Below are positions 1 through 34,959 of a stretch of 64,000 bases of DNA, one piece after another. Origin of the DNA: Ostreococcus lucimarinus. Its lineage: Eukaryota. Within the stretch, counting starts at the first letter, position 1; every line of letters begins with the position of its first letter. Below the pieces are notes generated by a model. That model did not search any database. It saw only the letters and a program-made list of their open reading frames with translations, and had not been told where the DNA came from. The DNA lies in NCBI GenBank assembly GCA_000092065.1, contig CP000581.1. One strand, 5' to 3'. The position numbers were made by a program, and so were the translations under genes.

Positions 1-3000
1 TCCTCTGAAGGTATATCCGTGAGCACGCCCGCAAATATAATTTCTGTTCCGACGAGCTCGTCCCCAGTGGCAATTTCACACGCCACGCGACCTTTCAACG
101 TCACCGTCCTGTTTTCGTCGAGATAGCCCATGCGCTGGAGCACAGCGACGCGCGCTTCAAAATCGGGCATTTGGAGCAAGTTTGCGTCTGACAATCCGAA
201 CTCCAGCTCGGCGACACGAGAAGTGAGAACATGTTTTGCTCGCAGCAACGCCGACCATTCACGAAGTTTCTGCGCCGATGCGACCGGTCTCGGGGGCAAG
301 CTCTTCACCAAGTCGGCGTGATGCTGACAAGCTTCCACGGTGACGATGTCTTGTATCTTCAAATCCTTGAGCGGGTGGAGAGCTTCAAACGAGGTCTCAC
401 TCGACAATTTCTCCATCGATAGGAGCGCTCGAGAAGTCGCCGCTACGTCACCACTACCATCTAGTATTGCGTCCGCTTCTACGCTCAACCGACTAGTCGT
501 GATAGCGAGTATCGCGGTCTCAGGAACGCTCGCGACAATGTAATCGATGCCGCCCGCTTGTCGAAACCACGGAAGGCCGTCGGGCATTTTATTTGAGGTC
601 GTGCCACCGCGCTTACCTCCGCCGGCGGACTTCTTGGACATGCCGAAGAAATCATCGTCGTCATCTTTGTCCTTACTATTCATGGACTTCATCGCCGTGG
701 GTGCGTTGTCTCGGGCAGCGTCTTCAGCTTCGGCGACACCTTTGGAGGCATGGCCTTCAGGACACGAAACAAGAACCACGAAAGACTTTCCATTCGTCGC
801 AGAAGTCACCACGCGCAGGAGCACGCAATGTTTTGCGACACCACCTCTTGGTAGTCCGTCCACACTCTCACCTCCCTCGCCTTCAGGAGCGACGAGCAAG
901 ACCCTTCCCGGGCTGAGTGCGTTTTGCGCCCCTCGACTCGTCATGATGGCTTCTCTCACGTGCTCCACGCTTCGTGCAATCTCTCTCGCATGGTCGTCCC
1001 AATGAACGGCTTTCTGCCATTCATCCGGTGAAAACTGCGCTTCAGTTTGCATGAGCGACTCTACTTTGCGAAGAGCAGCGGTGTCGATAGCGAGATCGCC
1101 TCGTCGATCTATGACGCTGCGCTGTGCATGGAATTCGGCAAACGAGCGCGCGAGCATATCCTCGACGCGCAAGTCCTCGACTCGCATGAGGTTGAGAATC
1201 ATGCCGTACGTCAATCGGAACTGTGACTGCAATTTCGTTGCTTGACCCGACAGCAACTGACGAAGCTCAAGTTCTGGAGGAAAGTTCTCCCAAGCTGCCA
1301 AGATGACGGTGCCGACTGTGTCGAGGCCTCGACGTCCAGCGCGGCCAGCCATTTGCGTATATTCACCACTTAGAAGACCTCTGAAATCTTGCCCGTCATG
1401 TTTGCGCAGACTTTGGAAGCACACACAACGAGCTGGAGCGTTTACACCCATCGCAAAAGTTTCCGTGCAATAGAGAACTTTAAGCAAACCACGACAAAAC
1501 AACATCTCGACAATCTCCTTGACGATTGGCAGTAGACCAGCGTGATGCACGCCGAGACCTCGACGAAGGAGTTCGCGCACGCGAAGGACTTGCGGTAACT
1601 TGCGGTCGGTGACGGATAATCGACTCAGCGCGCGTTCACAAAATACGTGGATTTCGTGCTTCTCAGAGCTTGATGTGAGATCCATCGACGTCAGGCTGTC
1701 GACGAGAGTGTCGCATCGTTTCTTGCTAAACGCAAATACAACCATGGGTAGTAGTTCTCGACGTTCAAGATTGCGAATGAGCTCTACCCACATATTCTTA
1801 TCGCGCCCAGCGTTGGGTCCAAACGAGCTTCCTCGTCCACCGGTGACGTTTTGGGTTCCTCCGCGCCCGCCCACTCGGCCTCCTCGCCCTTGTTGGGCTC
1901 CACCACGGCCGCCCCGTCCGGCGAGCGCGGTTTGTTTCGCAGCTTGCGCATTTGCTGGTGTTGCCGTCGTCGTTTTGTTACCAAGTAGCTTCTTTTTGTG
2001 CGCATCTGACGCGACTTTATACCCAGTCGGCAAGAATGCTTCGTGCTCTCCGACCTTGTAAAAGTCCTTCTCCTTATCGCCTCCGAAGTAGATGCAGTGT
2101 TCGAGCGGCACAGGTCGCTTCTTCGTTCCCGTGACGAATATTTTCTTTCTCTTCGTTCTTCCAACCCAATCAGCAAACTCGAAAACGTTTGGTACCGTGG
2201 CAGACAACAAAATCAAACCAACGTGCGCGGGAAGCATGATGATGACCTCTTCCCACACGACACCTCTCTCGGCGTCATTTACGTAGTGCACCTCGTCAAA
2301 GATAACCCATTCGACGTCGCGTATCAGATCCGCGCCTCGATACAGCATACTCCGCAAAATTTCCGTCGTCATGATGAGACAAGCCGCTTCTGGTTTGATG
2401 GAAACGTCACCTGTCAACAGGCCGACGTCGAACATCTTCCCAAAATCTCTAAACTTTTGGTTGCTAATCGTCTTGATTGGAGACGTATAGATGGCGCGCG
2501 TGCAGTGTTTCGTAGCCAGCGCAAAGGCGTATTCCGCAACCACGGTCTTGCCCGCGGAAGTGTGCGCTGCAACGAACACATTCTCGGACTTTTCCAAGTG
2601 GACGATGGCTTCTTTCTGAAATAAATCGAGTTCGAATGGGAAATCGTGCGCCGGTTCGGGTACCTCGCGTCTATACGCTTCCTGAACGTCGTCAAATCTC
2701 TCCATGACGGCCCATGTCTCTCCTTTCTTCTTCCTCGACTTACTTCGCCTTCGAGCCGCAATAATGGATTTTGTGCCGTTCAGTAATGCCTCGACTTCGG
2801 CTTCGCCTTCGAGCGTGACTTCGTCGACCGCTTCGCCGTCCTCTTCCGTTTCGTCCTCCGTTTCGTCCTCCGTGTCATCCTCCTCGCTCGATGATTCCTC
2901 CGGTCGAACAGCGCCGCGAAGCGCATCGATGAATAAATCGTCGTACGACATCGGTAACTCTTCATCGTCCATCACTGTCAGCTTTTCAAGCTCGAGCTCC

Positions 3001-3740
3001 ATTTGCTCCATGCCACTGTCTAAATCAAACATTTCTCGCATCCCGTGCAGCGTGTTTGGTAGAGTCGACGCTGAGAGATACGTCCCCGCTTCAAACTCTT
3101 CCAACCACGCCTTTCCCGCGCGACTCGCCAGCTCCATACGCTTTGCCGCGCTCTCTCGCGCGGCTGCGTCCCATCCTTCTCCTCCCGGCGTGAACGGCAC
3201 TTGACTAAACGAACCTCGCACGAAATCGCTCTGCGGCGCGGGCGAACGCGCCAACGAACTCGAATCTCCAGCCCCACCTTCGGCGAGAAGTTCGACCTCG
3301 ATCCAATCCGTCGTCGCCAACGTCTCCCCTCGCGCTTGTCGCTCGGCCCAATCCTTTGACGGCGTCGGCGTCGAGTGTGCGTCGTATGCGTCCACGTCGT
3401 ACGGCGTCGGCGTCGGCGCGCGCGGAAGCACCGCCGCCTCCGCCTCGCTCGGCTCTGCGCCCGCGCAGTGCGCGCTCAGCTTCACGCGGGCCATCATCGA
3501 CGCGGACGCAATCAGGGCGTCATCCAGTTCGCTCGCGCGCCGCGCTCGCGCGTCGTGCGCAGCGCCGTCGTCGTTCGGGACGACGGTTGGGTCAAAGCGG
3601 AGCGCGCGCGCGGGGACGCGTTCGACGGCGTCGACGTCCGCGACGTCGTCCTCGTCCACGACGACGATGCGGACGTCACCGCTCGATGTGGGGACGAGGG
3701 CCACGCGATCACCGACGCCCTCGACGAGGAGTCGCATCGC
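1..3740 (-). CDS. SKI2: SKI2/SKIV2L-type RNA helicase (3'-5' exosome cofactor). The C-terminus runs off the window start and about 40 aa are missing.
   Basis: Hand translation of the minus strand gives the motifs FPFELDLFQKEAIVHLEKSENVFVAAHTSAGKT, RLTYGMILNLMRVE and a DSHCT-like C-terminal stretch ...LQRMGYLDENRTVTLKGRVACEI. A roughly 345-aa N-terminal region precedes the helicase core, as in Ski2 rather than Mtr4. The upstream in-frame stop is at 3783-3785 and the first Met (MRLLVEG...) is at 3740. This ORF is absent from the ORF track because it runs off the window edge. Confidence 0.85.
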
Positions 3741-3869: not shown

Positions 3870-5357
3870 TCAAGTTTCGTAACGCTGCTCGCCGAGCAAG
3901 AAAACCTTGTCCGTTCTCGACAAGTCGTGTTCGAATCCGCCATGGCCGATGCGCTCCAGGGCGTCTGCAGGAGAAATATCGAGAAGTTCGTCGCCGAGAA
4001 GGGCGCGCCAGGTGTTGAGATCGGTGATTCCCGTTTCTGGTAAGCGATTACTCGCTTGGAAAGTCAGAAGAGCCGCGGAGGTGGTGCTACCGAAGTACCA
4101 ATACTCCATGTCCTCTTCGCCCGAATCGAAACCTTGTTCGGAGAGGATGACTTGCATCTTGTGAACTTCCATACCGCCGTCGTCTTCGCGAAGGACGGGC
4201 CACTTATGAGCACCTATTTTACCGTTCGTTTCGAATGAAGCGCCTTGAGGCGCACCTCGCTCGTCGTCGTGGCCAAAAGGATCGTAATCATCCGGGGCGT
4301 AGTCCTCTTCCGCCATGACATATTTCGGGTTCGCAGTGGCCGCTTCTGCTGCGGGCGCTTCTACCGAGGGCACCTTGTCCACGACCTCTGGAATCTTGCT
4401 CTCATCGAATGCGATCGCACCCGGTGGAGGTCCCCACTTGAATGCTTCTTCACCGAGCAATGCGCGCCACGTATCCGAATCCACGAGCCCAGTCTCGGGG
4501 ATCCCAGCGTTGGCTTGGAAATACAACAACGCGACCTTCGTCGTTTCGCCGAAGAACATATCCTCCTCGTCGTCTTCCCCGGCCCAGAATCCCGCCTCGT
4601 TTAATTTGTAGTGAATCGTCGTCATCAGATAGATGTCGTCGTCATTTTTCTTGACGAGCGGCCACTCCCCCGAACGATCCGTGCCGTCGCCTCTCCACTC
4701 GCTCACGTCGAGCACGGGCTCGACAATCGGTTCGCTCGCCTCCACATCCACCGCGCCTAACCCACCACCACCAACGCCAAGCATGGCCAACATATCCGCA
4801 TCACTCTTCTCTCCCTTCACGGCGTTCATGCTCGAGCCCGCGTCGAGCGTCCCTCCTCGCGTCGTCGCCGCTCGCACCTCCTCCTTCAGCTCCCGCACCT
4901 CCTTCGTCAACGACCGAATCTCTTTCAGCAGCTCCATCTGCACTTGCGCCGCATCCAAGACTATTTCTCCTCGCTCTTCGCGTATCTCCCGCAGTTCATT
5001 ATCGATCAGCGTGCGTTCGACGCGCAGGCGCGACGTCTCCACCAACGCCGCCTCCGCCGCGTCCCCAGCCTTCTTGAGAAATCCTCGAAGCTTCTTCTTC
5101 CCTCGCGCCACCACCGCGCCGCGCGGAGCGTCCGCGCGCGCGCGTCGCGACGGCGCGAGCGTCACCGGCGTCGCCCCGTCCGCGCGCGCGCGAAGGACGC
5201 AGCGCGCGCGCGGCGTCGCGGCGTCGCCGAATCCACGCCCGACGACGACGACGGCGGCGCGCGCGACGCCTCGAGCGCGCGCCGCGCCGCGCGACGACGA
5301 CGGCGCGCGCGCCGCCGTCGATCGCGTCGACGCGGCGATGGGCGCGCGCGCGCGCAT
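3870..5357 (-). CDS. Protein with an Arg/Ala-rich N-terminal transit-like peptide, a coiled coil and two putative peptidoglycan-binding (PG_binding_1) domains.
   Basis: The ORF is 3870..5738. Two repeats fit the PGBD consensus: FGETTKVALLYFQANAGIPETGLVDSDTWRALLG and FGSTTSAALLTFQASNRLPETGITDLNTWRALLG. A coiled coil reads EIREERGEIVLDAAQVQMELLKEIRSLTKEVRELKEEV. I trimmed the start to the Met at 5357 (MRARAPIAAS...) because the upstream part overlaps a coding-like LRR gene on the plus strand. Confidence 0.6.
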   Translation of the reverse strand: MRARAPIAASTRSTAARAPSSSRGAARARGVARAAVVVVGRGFGDAATPRARCVLRARADGATPVTLAPSRRARADAPRGAVVARGKKKLRGFLKKAGDAAEAALVETSRLRVERTLIDNELREIREERGEIVLDAAQVQMELLKEIRSLTKEVRELKEEVRAATTRGGTLDAGSSMNAVKGEKSDADMLAMLGVGGGGLGAVDVEASEPIVEPVLDVSEWRGDGTDRSGEWPLVKKNDDDIYLMTTIHYKLNEAGFWAGEDDEEDMFFGETTKVALLYFQANAGIPETGLVDSDTWRALLGEEAFKWGPPPGAIAFDESKIPEVVDKVPSVEAPAAEAATANPKYVMAEEDYAPDDYDPFGHDDERGAPQGASFETNGKIGAHKWPVLREDDGGMEVHKMQVILSEQGFDSGEEDMEYWYFGSTTSAALLTFQASNRLPETGITDLNTWRALLGDELLDISPADALERIGHGGFEHDLSRTDKVFLLGEQRYET

Positions 5358-5475
5358 GTCGGAAGACGACGCGACGCGACGAGAGCGCGCGTGACAATGC
5401 CGACACCGACGCGCTGCGCGCGAGACGTCGACGCGCGACGCGCGGACGACGCGTCGAGGCGTCGAGTCGACGGCG

Positions 5476-6078
5476 ATGACGCGGTCGAGCGCGATGCGCG
5501 CGCTCGCGCGCGCGCGCGCGCGCGTCGTCGCCGCGCGCGCGCGCGGTGGGAACGTTTCGTCGTCGTCAAAGTTCGCGTCGATGACGACGACGACGACGAC
5601 GCGCCCGAGCGACGACGTCACCGCGCGCACGCTGCTCGAGGCGAACGGCAAGCGATTCGACGTCGCGATGCCGCGCGGCGTGGCGCTGCAGGCGCTGTTG
5701 CTCGCGCGAAGCGACGACTTGAAGTGCGTGGACATCATGTGTCAGTGGGTGGGGGACGCGTGCGCGTGCAGGCTCGCGCGCGCGCTCGACAGGCGAGGGG
5801 AGGCGCTCAGGGTGCTGGATGTTTCTGGGAACAGGCTGCGCGCGCTGCCGAGCGCGGTGTGGGCGATGCGGGCGCTGGAGGTGTTGGACGCGAGCGACAA
5901 CGCGTTGACGCCGGCGGACGTCCCGTTCGACGATTTGATGGACGAGACCAAGGATGTGGCGCCGAATCTCAAGGTTTTGAATTTAAGGGGGAACGTGGCG
6001 GTGATAGATGGGTTAGAGGGGCGATTGAGAGAGGTCGTGGACGCCATGGCGCGTCGCGGCGTGAAGCTCGTGTTGTAG
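5476..6078 (+). CDS. Small leucine-rich-repeat protein.
   Basis: LRR units read LRVLDVSGNRLRALPSAVWAMRALEVLDASDNALT...NLKVLNLRGN. Third-codon positions are GC-rich and codon-like. An alternative start is the internal Met near 5578. Confidence 0.5.
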   Translation: MTRSSAMRALARARARVVAARARGGNVSSSSKFASMTTTTTTRPSDDVTARTLLEANGKRFDVAMPRGVALQALLLARSDDLKCVDIMCQWVGDACACRLARALDRRGEALRVLDVSGNRLRALPSAVWAMRALEVLDASDNALTPADVPFDDLMDETKDVAPNLKVLNLRGNVAVIDGLEGRLREVVDAMARRGVKLVL

Positions 6079-6093
6079 TAAAGCGGTTAGCGT

Positions 6094-7284
6094 TTGATTA
6101 AACGTCATTCGTCGTCGCGCATGTCAGCGTCATCGCGTTGCGGTGCGCGAGCCGCCTCGACATCGTCGCCGTCGCGTCATCTCTCGCGTCGCCGCCCTTC
6201 GCGCGCGCGCGCGTCGATGGCGTCGGTTGCCAGCCAGCTCCCGGTGCTGTCGCTGCCGCGAGAAGACGCCGACGAAAACTCACACCGCGCGTTCGCCGCG
6301 GAGCTGTGTCGAACGTGTCACGACGTTGGATTCTTTTATTTATCGAATCACGGCGTCGAGCAGGCGTGCGACAACGTTCTCGACGCGTCGAGGGCGTTCT
6401 TCGCGTTGCCACTGGCTGAGAAGAAAGAGATAGACTACACGCGAAGTCGAGCGTTTCGAGGATACATGTACGACGGCGCCGAAAACACCGCTGGAAAGCC
6501 AGATCGAAGAGAGCAGATTGAATTCGGTGTCGAGTGCGCCGAAACGTGCGCCACCGAAGGGCCATATTACGAGCGATTAAAAGGTCCAAATCAGTGGCCG
6601 GCTCAGGTGCCGCTTCGCGCACCAGTGGAAGATTTCCAAAACAAAATGGCGACGTTGAGTCGAAGAATCATGACTTATTTGGCGATCGGACTAGACCTCG
6701 ACGGCGGTTATTTCGATTCCATGTTCGGCGACGAACCGAACGTGCAGATGAAAATTTGCCGGTATCCGCCGAGCGACGGATCCGTCGGCGAACACAGCGA
6801 CACTGGAATTCTTTCTTTTGTCGTCCAAGACTCGGTCGGTGGTTTGCAAGTGCAGCTTCACGATAGCGGTGAATGGATTGATGCGCCGCCGATCGACGGA
6901 ACGCTCGTCGTCAACTTGGGGGAGATGATTCAACTAATCACCGGCGGCTACTTTCTTGCCACGCCGCATCGCGTTCAAAACCTGAACGGCAGCCAGGCGC
7001 GATACTCGGTGCCTTACTTTTGGAATCCGGAGCTAGACTATCGAGTCGAATTTATAGAGTCCTCCATATTGGACAGTTTGGTTTGGCATCGGCCGCGACC
7101 GTCGGACGATTCCTTCAGAGCGACGGGATCGCACGGCGGCGCGAATCGACTCATCTCAGCGTACGGCGAAAACGCGTTCAAATCGTTCGCACGGTCTCAT
7201 CCCGTAGTCATGCGAAGGCATCATTCAGACTTAGTGATGAACCCCGACGGTAGTATAACTAGTCCTAGCAGCTCAATATTATAA
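6094..7284 (+). CDS. 2-oxoglutarate/Fe(II)-dependent dioxygenase of the isopenicillin-N-synthase/ACC-oxidase-like family.
   Basis: A DIOX_N-like N-terminus (FFYLSNHGVEQ) is followed by a 2OG-FeII_Oxy core with an HxD...H triad (VGEHSDTGILSFVVQD ... ATPHRV) and RYSVPYFWNP. The Ser/Arg-rich first 41 aa may be a targeting peptide. An alternative start is the ATG at 6217 (MASVASQLPVL...). Confidence 0.8.
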   Translation: MIKRHSSSRMSASSRCGARAASTSSPSRHLSRRRPSRARASMASVASQLPVLSLPREDADENSHRAFAAELCRTCHDVGFFYLSNHGVEQACDNVLDASRAFFALPLAEKKEIDYTRSRAFRGYMYDGAENTAGKPDRREQIEFGVECAETCATEGPYYERLKGPNQWPAQVPLRAPVEDFQNKMATLSRRIMTYLAIGLDLDGGYFDSMFGDEPNVQMKICRYPPSDGSVGEHSDTGILSFVVQDSVGGLQVQLHDSGEWIDAPPIDGTLVVNLGEMIQLITGGYFLATPHRVQNLNGSQARYSVPYFWNPELDYRVEFIESSILDSLVWHRPRPSDDSFRATGSHGGANRLISAYGENAFKSFARSHPVVMRRHHSDLVMNPDGSITSPSSSIL

Positions 7285-8154
7285 TCGTTCCGCCGGCGCA
7301 GGAACCGGCGTTTTCTTTTTCTGCGGTAAACTAACTTCTAACGTCACCTTCACGTCATCATCCGCACCGACTGTGGTGATGATGTTCACGCGCTCTTGCG
7401 ACGGCTTTGGAGTTTTCGGCTTCTTCGGTGGCTTGACCTTTTTCGGCGCGTACTTCGTGTTATATCTCGTCATCGCGTCACCAAACTTGTTGTCAAGCAA
7501 CACCTCCTGCAACGCCTCCACGGCGTCTTCCACGGCGCCATTCACCTTGACCGCGTCGTCCTCATCGAACCTCGAAAGCACGTACTCGTACACCGCCGTA
7601 TTTTCATCTTTAGGCCGTCCAATCCCAATCTTAACTCGCGCGAAAGATCTATCGCCGCGCGTCGCGTCGTCGATGACGCTTCGCACACCGTTATGCCCAC
7701 CATGACTCCCGCTCGTCTTCATCCTCAACTCTCCAAGCTTGGTCTCTAAATCATCGTACACGATCACGATTCGCGACTTACCGATCTTAAACGCCCGCAT
7801 CATCTCTCGCACGCTCTTGCCGCTCAGGTTCATAAAAGTCTGCGGCTTCGCCAGAACCACCGCGCTGCGTCCAAGCTTCCCCACCCCGAGCACCGCGCGG
7901 TGCTTCGTCGACGTCAGCTCGATCCCAGCGCGTCGCGCGAGCGCGTCCACGACCTCGAAACCGACGTTGTGTCTCGTGCCGGCGAATTTCGCGCCTGGGT
8001 TCCCGAGTCCACAAATCAACCACGCGTCGCGTTCGACGCCGCGCGCGCCCATCGCGCGCGTCGACACCGCGCGCACCGCGCGCGCGGGCAAGCCGACGAT
8101 CGCCACCGACGCGCGCGCGGTGGCTCGCAGCGCGCCCGCGAGCGCGCGCTTCAT
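7279..8154 (-). CDS. PTH: Peptidyl-tRNA hydrolase (bacterial/organellar Pth type) with an organellar presequence and a Lys-rich C-terminal tail.
   Basis: Motifs are GLGNPGAKFAGTRHNVGF, LAKPQTFMNLSGKSV, VIVYDDLETKLGELRMKTSGSHGGHNGVRS. The track ORF extends to 8730, but that Arg-rich extension overlaps TAF12. I trimmed the start to the Met at 8154 (MKRALAGAL...). Confidence 0.85.
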   Translation of the reverse strand: MKRALAGALRATARASVAIVGLPARAVRAVSTRAMGARGVERDAWLICGLGNPGAKFAGTRHNVGFEVVDALARRAGIELTSTKHRAVLGVGKLGRSAVVLAKPQTFMNLSGKSVREMMRAFKIGKSRIVIVYDDLETKLGELRMKTSGSHGGHNGVRSVIDDATRGDRSFARVKIGIGRPKDENTAVYEYVLSRFDEDDAVKVNGAVEDAVEALQEVLLDNKFGDAMTRYNTKYAPKKVKPPKKPKTPKPSQERVNIITTVGADDDVKVTLEVSLPQKKKTPVPAPAERL

Positions 8155-8337
8155 GCCGCGGTGGCGAGTGGCGCGTGCCGCAGTGCTCGACGCGACGACG
8201 CGAGACGAAGACGAGATGAGCGCGCGACAGGTGCGAACGACGCGACGCGGCGCGGCGCGACGCGACGATGTCGCGCGTCGGGCGACGCGACGATGCGACG
8301 GGCCGCGCGCCGTTCGAATCGATTCGATTCGATTTCG

Positions 8338-9015
8338 ATGCGATCGAGCGATGCGTTGGCGTCTAGGGCGACGACGCGAAGCGCGTTCGAGCGCGTCGAG
8401 ACTCGCAGAGCCCCCCCCGCGCGCGATGACGACACGACTGACGCCGAGCGCGTCGAGCGCGCGCGATCGAAGAAACAAACCGCCGAGGACGTGGCGGCGC
8501 AGATGGAGAAACGCGCGGCGGCGCAGGCGAGACTCGCGGCGGCGCAAGCGGCGGCGGCGGCGTCCGCGGCGGCGGCGAAAAAGAAGACCGATGATGGTGG
8601 TCACGCGATCTCCAAGGATGAGCTTCAGGAGCTGCTGAAGGAGTTCGCGCCGGGAGAGAGCTTCGAACCGGAGGTTGAGGAAATGCTGTTGGAGATTACG
8701 GACGACTTCGTCGACAACGTGCTCGAACACGCGGCGCGATTAGCGAGACATCGAGGAAGCGAGGCGGTGGAACCGAAAGATGTGTTGTTACATCTCGAGC
8801 GGCAGTGGGATATGCACATTCCCGGGTACGGTGGTGAAGAGGTGCCAAAGTATACGGAGAAGCAAAGCGTGGAGACGCACTCGAGACGACTGGCGGCGGT
8901 GCGACGGTCGGTAGCCGCGGCCACGGCGGCGCAAAACGAGCAACGCAAGCAAGCTCGACTCGCAGCCGATCGTGCGACGAAAGGAAAAGGAGATATGGGC
9001 GCGGAAGACGCATAG
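8338..9015 (+). CDS. TAF12: TFIID subunit TAF12, histone-fold domain.
   Basis: The C-terminal region matches the TAF12 histone fold: LQELLKEFAPGESFEPEVEEMLLEITDDFVDNVLEHAARLARHRGSEAVEPKDVLLHLERQWDMHIPGYGG. The track ORF starts at 7900 but overlaps PTH on the opposite strand. The start is probably the ATG at 8338 or at 8293. Confidence 0.75.
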   Translation: MRSSDALASRATTRSAFERVETRRAPPARDDDTTDAERVERARSKKQTAEDVAAQMEKRAAAQARLAAAQAAAAASAAAAKKKTDDGGHAISKDELQELLKEFAPGESFEPEVEEMLLEITDDFVDNVLEHAARLARHRGSEAVEPKDVLLHLERQWDMHIPGYGGEEVPKYTEKQSVETHSRRLAAVRRSVAAATAAQNEQRKQARLAADRATKGKGDMGAEDA

Positions 9016-34886: not shown

Positions 34887-34902
34887 GGGGTCGTAGCTCA
34901 AA

Positions 34903-34944
<42 letters not shown>

Positions 34945-34959
34945 TACTTGGCGACTCCA
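34887..34959 (+). tRNA. tRNA-Ala(AGC).
   Basis: GGGGTCGTAGCTCAAATGGTAGAGCGCGCGCTTAGCATGCGCGAGGTACCGAGATCGATACTTGGCGACTCCA folds as a cloverleaf. The acceptor stem carries the G3:U70 alanine identity pair, the anticodon loop is CTTAGCATG and a T-loop ATCGATA is present. CCA is not encoded. Confidence 0.85.

Follow-up and report, generated by a model that had tools for sequence, protein, structure and literature searches.

Plastids go back to cyanobacteria that had a wall, and it is still debated which components of the wall toolkit they have kept, and why. The question is raised by a gene of the green alga Ostreococcus lucimarinus, located on the minus strand at positions 3870-5357 of the window analysed here (the whole stretch of 64,000 nucleotides from contig CP000581.1 of GenBank assembly GCA_000092065.1). 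Its product carries two peptidoglycan-binding domains (PGBDs) and belongs to a family that persists even in the smallest of free-living eukaryotes, where murein synthesis has been lost. What would such domains bind there? Our answer, offered tentatively and rated a little short of an even chance, is that the protein has been re-purposed as an oligomeric, organelle-targeted adaptor, with PGBDs directed at a non-murein ligand.

Two peptidoglycan-binding domains in a green-algal family

Searched with the PF01471 (PG_binding_1) profile, the whole protein scores 76.8 bits (E = 1.5e-21) in two stretches, and each PGBD scored alone is above the gathering cutoff of 23 bits. The order of the parts is a basic putative presequence, a coiled coil, PGBD1, an acidic linker, PGBD2 and a C-terminal hairpin motif, at the following positions (pLDDT, predicted local distance difference test).

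3870-5357, minus strand: complete, single-exon coding sequence of the tandem-PGBD protein (495 residues and stop codon), from the list of open reading frames (ORFs)
5106-5357, minus strand: leader, residues 1-84, a putative organelle (plastid) targeting presequence, from composition and predicted disorder
4860-5096, minus strand: coiled coil, residues 88-166, a putative oligomerization module, from AlphaFold2 secondary structure
4428-4667, minus strand: PGBD1, residues 231-310, with PF01471 matching residues 248-300 (4458-4616) at 38.8 bits
4206-4427, minus strand: acidic, Pro/Ala-rich linker between the PGBDs, residues 311-384, predicted to be disordered (pLDDT < 50 in both models)
3951-4208, minus strand: PGBD2, residues 384-469, with PF01471 matching residues 397-453 (3999-4169) at 44.8 bits
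3873-3926, minus strand: C-terminal motif DLSRTDKVFLLGEQRYET, residues 478-495, a predicted small β-hairpin, from family alignments

The two PGBDs share 45% identity, and in the predicted structure their three-helix-bundle fold can be superposed on solved PGBDs. The core PGBD motifs (FG-x-x-T, FQ, G-L-P-E-T-G and T-W-x-x-L-L) are fully conserved. A profile search of PDB sequences matched phiKZ gp144 (E = 4.9e-5), relative to which the algal domains have a three-residue acidic insertion (GEEDMEYWyFG against G-DG---IFG). In PGBD2 the insertion reads GEEDMEYWYFG, and this domain also has a family-specific WPVLR-EDGG lead-in. AlphaFold2, run on a 23-sequence alignment, models PGBD1 with pLDDT of 84-97, PGBD2 with 92-97 and the linker, which contains 16 acidic and 5 basic residues, with values < 50; the predicted template modelling score is 0.42. 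The PGBDs are thus modelled as two independent modules on a flexible tether, with no confident interdomain packing. In the full-length model the coiled coil forms two long helices (88-128 and 136-166). Strong hydrophobic residues occupy 75% of the a/d positions between residues 140 and 174, and L150 and E153 are invariant in the family alignment.

No other Pfam or NCBIfam domain, and no catalytic domain, was detected in the protein; the NCBIfam matches are confined to the PGBD part and lie far under their cutoffs. A match to ApoLp-III (13-15 bits against a cutoff of 36) was rejected as coiled-coil noise. There is no transmembrane segment (maximum 19-residue hydropathy, KD19, of 1.25) and no cysteine in residues 85-495. 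We read the product as soluble and very acidic, and regard the domain identity and the architecture as near-certain. The initial annotation had described two PGBDs behind a coiled coil and an Arg/Ala-rich, transit-like N-terminus, in a protein of a eukaryotic alga, and had called the combination not well described. All of this was borne out: the PGBD peptides that it quoted are present, at residues 279 and 430, the composition of the leader agrees (see below), residues 141-495 are those of a deposited O. lucimarinus protein, and our literature search found no characterized member and no functional study of this architecture.

An exhaustive HMMER search over 1.84 billion cluster representatives gave 134 that match below 1e-30. 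The named members are O. lucimarinus and Bathycoccus prasinos in the Mamiellophyceae, Chlorella vulgaris, two Micractinium species and Auxenochlorella protothecoides in the Trebouxiophyceae, Gonium pectorale in the Chlorophyceae and Neomeris dumetosa in the Ulvophyceae; databases label them hypothetical or 'peptidoglycan binding-like domain-containing' (e.g. A4RR90, A0A9D4Z1Q3). The most conserved positions of the family are in the last 18 residues, where the models place β-strands at residues 485-487 and 492-494. D478, V485, L487, G489, E490 and R492 are invariant across 12 diverse homologues (alignment A1), L487, G489, E490 and R492 remain so in a 20-sequence alignment (A2), and the equivalent columns, together with the Gln of the motif and the final Trp, are invariant in a 27-sequence alignment (A3). 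The pattern [VF][FWY]L[LIM]GE[QG]R[WYF] occurs in 76 of the 144 newly returned cluster representatives among the best 150; the matches without it in the top list are mainly bacterial multi-PGBD repeat proteins and fragments. As judged from these alignments, the C-terminal VxLLGEQRWE motif is a signature of the green-algal family. The O. lucimarinus protein has all of the family elements (coiled coil, two PGBDs with the acidic insertion and the C-terminal motif; alignments A1-A4) and also the basic, acid-poor leader that is a trait of the tandem-PGBD family of Chlorophyta.

No streptophyte or glaucophyte member was seen, in searches that were not an exhaustive named census. A profile search built on a mixed alignment returned Mamiellales only and, when it was rerun without them, added Micractinium and Gonium and no streptophyte. 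Neither WPVLRxEDGG nor GEEDMEYWxF was found, as confirmed by tblastn, in 185,579 prokaryote species (one genome each), and a viral scan gave only an ordinary actinophage amidase-PGBD endolysin (L005). By sequence, then, the family is well defined, uncharacterized and Chlorophyta-wide. One Chlorella vulgaris model, KAL4853320.1 (P0319; 878 residues, 'Holliday junction resolvase MOC1'), falls in a cluster of at least 90% identity with the Chlorella family member and contains both PGBDs and some 360 extra residues. It is probably a fusion of the PGBD gene with a neighbour; no such adjacency exists in Ostreococcus.

Comparison of the O. lucimarinus gene with that of a 70%-identical Ostreococcus species gives proportions of non-synonymous and synonymous differences (pN and pS) of 0.163 and 0.713, with synonymous sites saturated, and a ratio of non-synonymous to synonymous rates (dN/dS) of about 0.08 or lower overall; for PGBD1, pN is 0.086 against saturated pS. 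These values indicate that the gene is under strong purifying selection within Ostreococcus and is not decaying. A further orthologue, from a closely related Ostreococcus (L006, 2461-3954; ~87% amino acid identity), is split into two ORFs and was left out of dN/dS on account of frameshifts in the contig. The frameshifts are more likely to be assembly errors than marks of a pseudogene, because the flanking genes are also fragmented there.

Start codon, leader and genomic setting

Sequence comparison assigns the gene to the nuclear genome of Ostreococcus lucimarinus. It is intron-less, and no intron has to be assumed, since a single ORF aligns with the homologues from end to end. The in-frame ORF runs on the minus strand from 5738 down to 3870, and the ATG at 5357, which the initial annotation had used, is its second in-frame start. 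Orthologues of 60-70% identity share a conserved block, GKKKLRGF, that begins at residue 86, and the only ATGs upstream of this block are 5357 and 5735/5738. A start at 5738 (622-residue ORF) was rejected: it would overlap the divergent leucine-rich repeat (LRR) gene by ~260 bp, and gene callers never choose it. On other contigs they choose the ATG at 5357, and calls of the identical 495-residue protein occur in 287 blocks of contigs from marine metagenomes or genomes. In the 70%-identical Ostreococcus species an alternative start gives a leader of similar length (~80 residues) and composition.

The RefSeq/GenBank model (XP_001415859.1 / ABO94151.1, 355 residues) starts at Met141 (4935-4937, minus strand) rather than at Met1 (5355-5357). 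XP_001415859.1, also A4RR90 (O. lucimarinus CCE9901, 'predicted protein'), is identical to residues 141-495. The NCBI model appears to be truncated at its N-terminus, missing the leader and half of the conserved coiled coil, because the conserved, constrained block that begins at residue 86 lies upstream of Met141. dN/dS over residues 85-170 is ~0.19, and a start at Met141 was rejected since residues 86-140 are conserved in orthologues and constrained.

Within its 84 residues the leader contains 17 Arg, 25 Ala, 11 Ser/Thr and 3 acidic residues, giving an isoelectric point (pI) of 12 and a net charge of +13.5, whereas the protein that follows has a pI of 4.45 and a charge of -40. Residues 1-88 are modelled as disordered (pLDDT < 50, full-length AlphaFold2 model). 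Across the family the leaders are not conserved in sequence and are nearly acid-free over their first ~35-60 residues, with the first acidic residue at position 35-63 in most full-length members. Homologues from all green-algal classes open with such a stretch, some 40-50 residues long and devoid of acidic residues, and acid-poor leaders recur in Micromonas-like proteins, Chlorella vulgaris, Bathycoccus and the transcript-derived MMETSP and Neomeris proteins. A signal peptide, a twin-arginine signal and a lumenal signal were rejected, as there is no adequate hydrophobic core. Within the GC-rich part that encodes the leader, ARAGORN reports a 77-nt tRNA-Ala(cgc) (5113-5189, minus strand). This candidate tRNA inside the coding sequence was rejected because it scores below the threshold of the Rfam tRNA model, and it is probably a false positive from GCG-rich sequence.

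The leader might instead be low-complexity, GC-rich coding sequence and no plastid transit peptide, on a mitochondrial or a cytosolic/nuclear acidic coiled-coil protein, an explanation that we consider unlikely. In green algae the presequences of plastid and mitochondrial proteins are not easily distinguished, the region has an extremely high GC content and long ORFs in either strand, and several models (Gonium and many metagenome ORFs) begin at the coiled coil. The short models, however, mostly stem from ORF calling of prokaryotic style in genomes that have introns, and leaders are present both in transcript-derived models (MMETSP, Neomeris) and in curated ones (Chlorella, Bathycoccus). A basic leader free of acidic residues, joined to a strongly acidic mature protein, is classic for organelle presequences. 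Composition and the recurring acid-free leader make organelle targeting likely, with the plastid as the probable destination.

Three Ostreococcus lineages share the same order of genes, for peptidyl-tRNA hydrolase (Pth), 2-oxoglutarate (2OG) oxygenase, LRR protein, PGBD protein and SKI2 helicase. In the window the SKI2/MTR4-type helicase gene (1-3737, minus strand; ~1389 residues in full) runs off the window start and begins 132 bp downstream of the PGBD-gene stop. The label 'antiviral helicase SKI2' that the Joint Genome Institute (JGI) attaches to many family proteins was rejected and probably comes from this adjacent gene. On the other side, a gene for a small LRR protein (5476-6078, plus strand) is divergent from the PGBD gene, ~118 bp from its start, and is followed by a 2OG-Fe(II) oxygenase gene (6094-7284, plus strand) and by a peptidyl-tRNA hydrolase ORF with a long N-terminal extension (7279-8730, minus strand), the last two converging with a 6 bp overlap at their stop codons. 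Between 3350 and 6100 both strands are ~65% GC and hold many long overlapping ORFs in several frames with Arg/Ala-rich translations, such as 4944-6101 (plus strand, 385 residues) and 4633-5394 (plus strand, 253 residues); these look like by-products of codon bias and not like genes. A genuine tRNA-Ala(agc) lies at 34887-34959 (plus strand), found by ARAGORN and by Rfam RF00005 (52.9 bits).

Domain charge, host pathway and the ligand

The algal PGBDs have a net charge of -7.4 ± 3.0 per 68-residue domain (111 domains of 70 non-redundant proteins), and in the O. lucimarinus protein PGBD1 and PGBD2 carry -11 and -10. The corresponding value is -2 for phiKZ gp144 and +0.3 ± 3.5 for bacterial multi-PGBD proteins, a set made up of the highest-scoring multi-repeat proteins by profile and not a random sample. 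Because murein is anionic and the algal PGBDs are acidified, a ligand that is basic and different from murein is suggested, and the acidified surface makes actual peptidoglycan binding doubtful.

The host pathway points the same way. In the survey of van Baren et al. (2016; PMC4815162) all ten enzymes of the pathway are present in M. pusilla and in certain further prasinophytes, MURE, MRAY, MURG and PBP remain in M. commoda, chlorophytes have only a few of the pathway genes, and nothing but DDL and MurE is left in Bathycoccus and the three Ostreococcus genomes. Since only these two are retained, O. lucimarinus would be unable to produce lipid II in the known way. The same architecture occurs in pathway-poor Ostreococcus, Bathycoccus and other chlorophytes, so across the chlorophytes compared the family does not track the peptidoglycan pathway. 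This is where we part from the initial annotation, which had seen in the protein a component or tether of a plastid peptidoglycan or division apparatus: homologues are found in lineages without plastid peptidoglycan genes, an observation that it had itself named as telling against such a role, and in pathway-poor Ostreococcus the gene is under selection.

As a tether, the protein would sit in the inter-membrane space of the envelope and hold residual plastid peptidoglycan or the division machinery attached to it, which we find distinctly unlikely. Such a role would suit the fully conserved core motifs, has a precedent in SjcF1, a two-PGBD anchor that binds murein (PMC4488944), and is in keeping with peptidoglycan-like labelling reported in angiosperm plastids (PMC9954125). 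It sits badly with the absence of lipid II synthesis in Ostreococcus and Bathycoccus, with a family that is equally conserved in pathway-poor chlorophytes, with domains that are strongly acidic, unlike bacterial PGBDs, with the want of a membrane anchor and with prasinophytes in which no peptidoglycan layer is visible by transmission electron microscopy.

If not murein, the PGBDs could bind a soluble product of DDL or MurE (D-Ala-D-Ala or a UDP-MurNAc-peptide-like molecule), as a plastid carrier or sensor, a purely conjectural role that we think highly unlikely. DDL and MurE are retained in every Viridiplantae genome surveyed, Ostreococcus included, and the ligand-groove motifs of the PGBDs are conserved, but the substrate of MurE, UDP-MurNAc-L-Ala-D-Glu, comes from MurA-D, which are absent, and we know of no PGBD that binds free precursors. 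Recognition of bacterial peptidoglycan, for defence or for phycosphere interaction, is barely plausible. PGBDs do bind bacterial walls and picoalgae live with bacteria, but the protein has no signal peptide, transmembrane segment, catalytic domain or signalling domain, its leader resembles an organelle presequence and its acidic surface is unlike that of bacterial PGBDs.

We therefore return to the re-purposed adaptor. The basic presequence would take the protein into an organelle, with the plastid the likeliest one, and would then be removed. The coiled coil would make the protein at least dimeric, presenting four or more PGBD modules on flexible tethers, and these modules together with the C-terminal motif would form a multivalent adaptor for a ligand other than the murein sacculus, most likely a protein partner of basic character, or else a different glycan or peptide of the plastid. 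The PGBDs would be left over from the wall toolkit of a cyanobacterium or another bacterium and would now serve a new interaction, on the pattern of pTAC5 and the pro-domains of matrix metalloproteinases (MMPs). Several points weigh against this interpretation. The charge argument is indirect, and the bacterial set behind it was selected by profile score. The absence of the pathway is taken from one published gene survey and not from chemistry. The labelling of angiosperm plastids was obtained despite an incomplete pathway (PMC9954125). Finally, the conserved core motifs leave room for binding of murein or of muropeptides.

In one version of murein binding, which we regard as a long shot, the plastids of Ostreococcus and other 'pathway-less' chlorophytes would keep a peptidoglycan-like or D-Ala-D-Ala-containing polymer through a non-canonical route and the protein would be a genuine murein-binding tether. 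The family would in that case supply the connection, long missing, from such a layer to the machinery of plastid division or of the envelope. As the evidence stands, it is a well-defined, uncharacterized family and not a surprise, and its interest would be high only if a cryptic plastid wall polymer were bound. It is a clean example of wall-binding modules that strong selection has maintained throughout the Chlorophyta. Knowing where the protein sits and what it binds would reveal either that PGBDs were re-tooled for a new function in the plastid, which is also the suspicion about pTAC5, MurE and LysM proteins, or that a cryptic wall-like polymer persists, and the question is directly testable since O. 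tauri and Chlamydomonas are transformable.

Comparison with known systems

A close parallel is Arabidopsis pTAC5 (AT4G13670), which belongs to the plastid nucleoid, combines a peptidoglycan-binding domain with a C4 zinc finger of the DnaJ type and reportedly acts as a disulfide isomerase (PMC4080259). Both proteins are nuclear-encoded, contain PF01471 and come from lineages without a complete murein pathway, with the PGBD presumably re-used for a non-wall role; the plastid location of the algal protein is the predicted one. pTAC5 is set apart by its single PGBD and by the Cys-rich zinc finger with disulfide isomerase activity, whereas the O. lucimarinus protein has two PGBDs, a coiled coil and the C-terminal GEQRWE motif. 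Pfam finds no DnaJ_CXXCXGXG zinc finger (the CxxCxGxG repeats of pTAC5) in the algal protein, which is not a pTAC5 orthologue because it has neither cysteine in residues 85-495 nor a zinc finger. The JGI label 'protein disulfide-isomerase' on some family members may have been transferred from pTAC5. A 'peptidoglycan binding protein' of the trebouxiophyte Picochlorum costavermella, which may or may not belong to this family, is reported to be up-regulated at high temperature (PMC6141220), and pTAC5 is likewise heat-induced. Plant MurE, re-used in plastid transcription, is a further case of a wall-pathway protein in a new role.

Wall-glycan-binding modules in plastid-associated proteins are also known from LysM proteins. 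Chlamydomonas LMR1 (Cre09.g393765) has two LysM domains and localizes to patches of the chloroplast envelope; its authors proposed binding of another glycan, in an alga lacking most murein genes (bioRxiv 10.1101/2022.05.31.493820). The streptophyte LysM protein PPASP has been proposed to be associated with the pathway. LMR1 and PPASP differ from the algal tandem-PGBD proteins in having the LysM fold (PF01476), and PPASP tracks the murein pathway, which the tandem-PGBD family does not.

Among proteins with the same fold, the SleB N-domain (6tci), phiKZ gp144 (3bkh), the AP3 endolysin (5nm7), CtpB and L,D-transpeptidases have PGBDs of near-neutral charge fused to catalytic domains. In contrast, the O. 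lucimarinus protein has no catalytic domain, a three-residue acidic insertion and a charge of -10 to -11 per domain. The MMP pro-domains have a PGBD-like fold, but their structural and sequence match to the algal domains is much weaker than that of bacterial PGBDs, and the algal protein has no protease domain. Anabaena SjcF1 (All1861) comes from the plastid-related cyanobacterial lineage and resembles the algal protein in its tandem PF01471 domains, the lack of a hydrolase domain and its function as an anchor or adaptor (PMC4488944), the role that we propose for the algal protein. SjcF1 has an SH3_3 domain and acts at septal murein, whereas the O. lucimarinus protein gives no SH3_3 match and has a coiled coil instead, with no transmembrane segment. 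The domain content of the algal protein had already been flagged by automatic annotation; what is new is an architectural variant among PGBD-containing proteins of plastid type.

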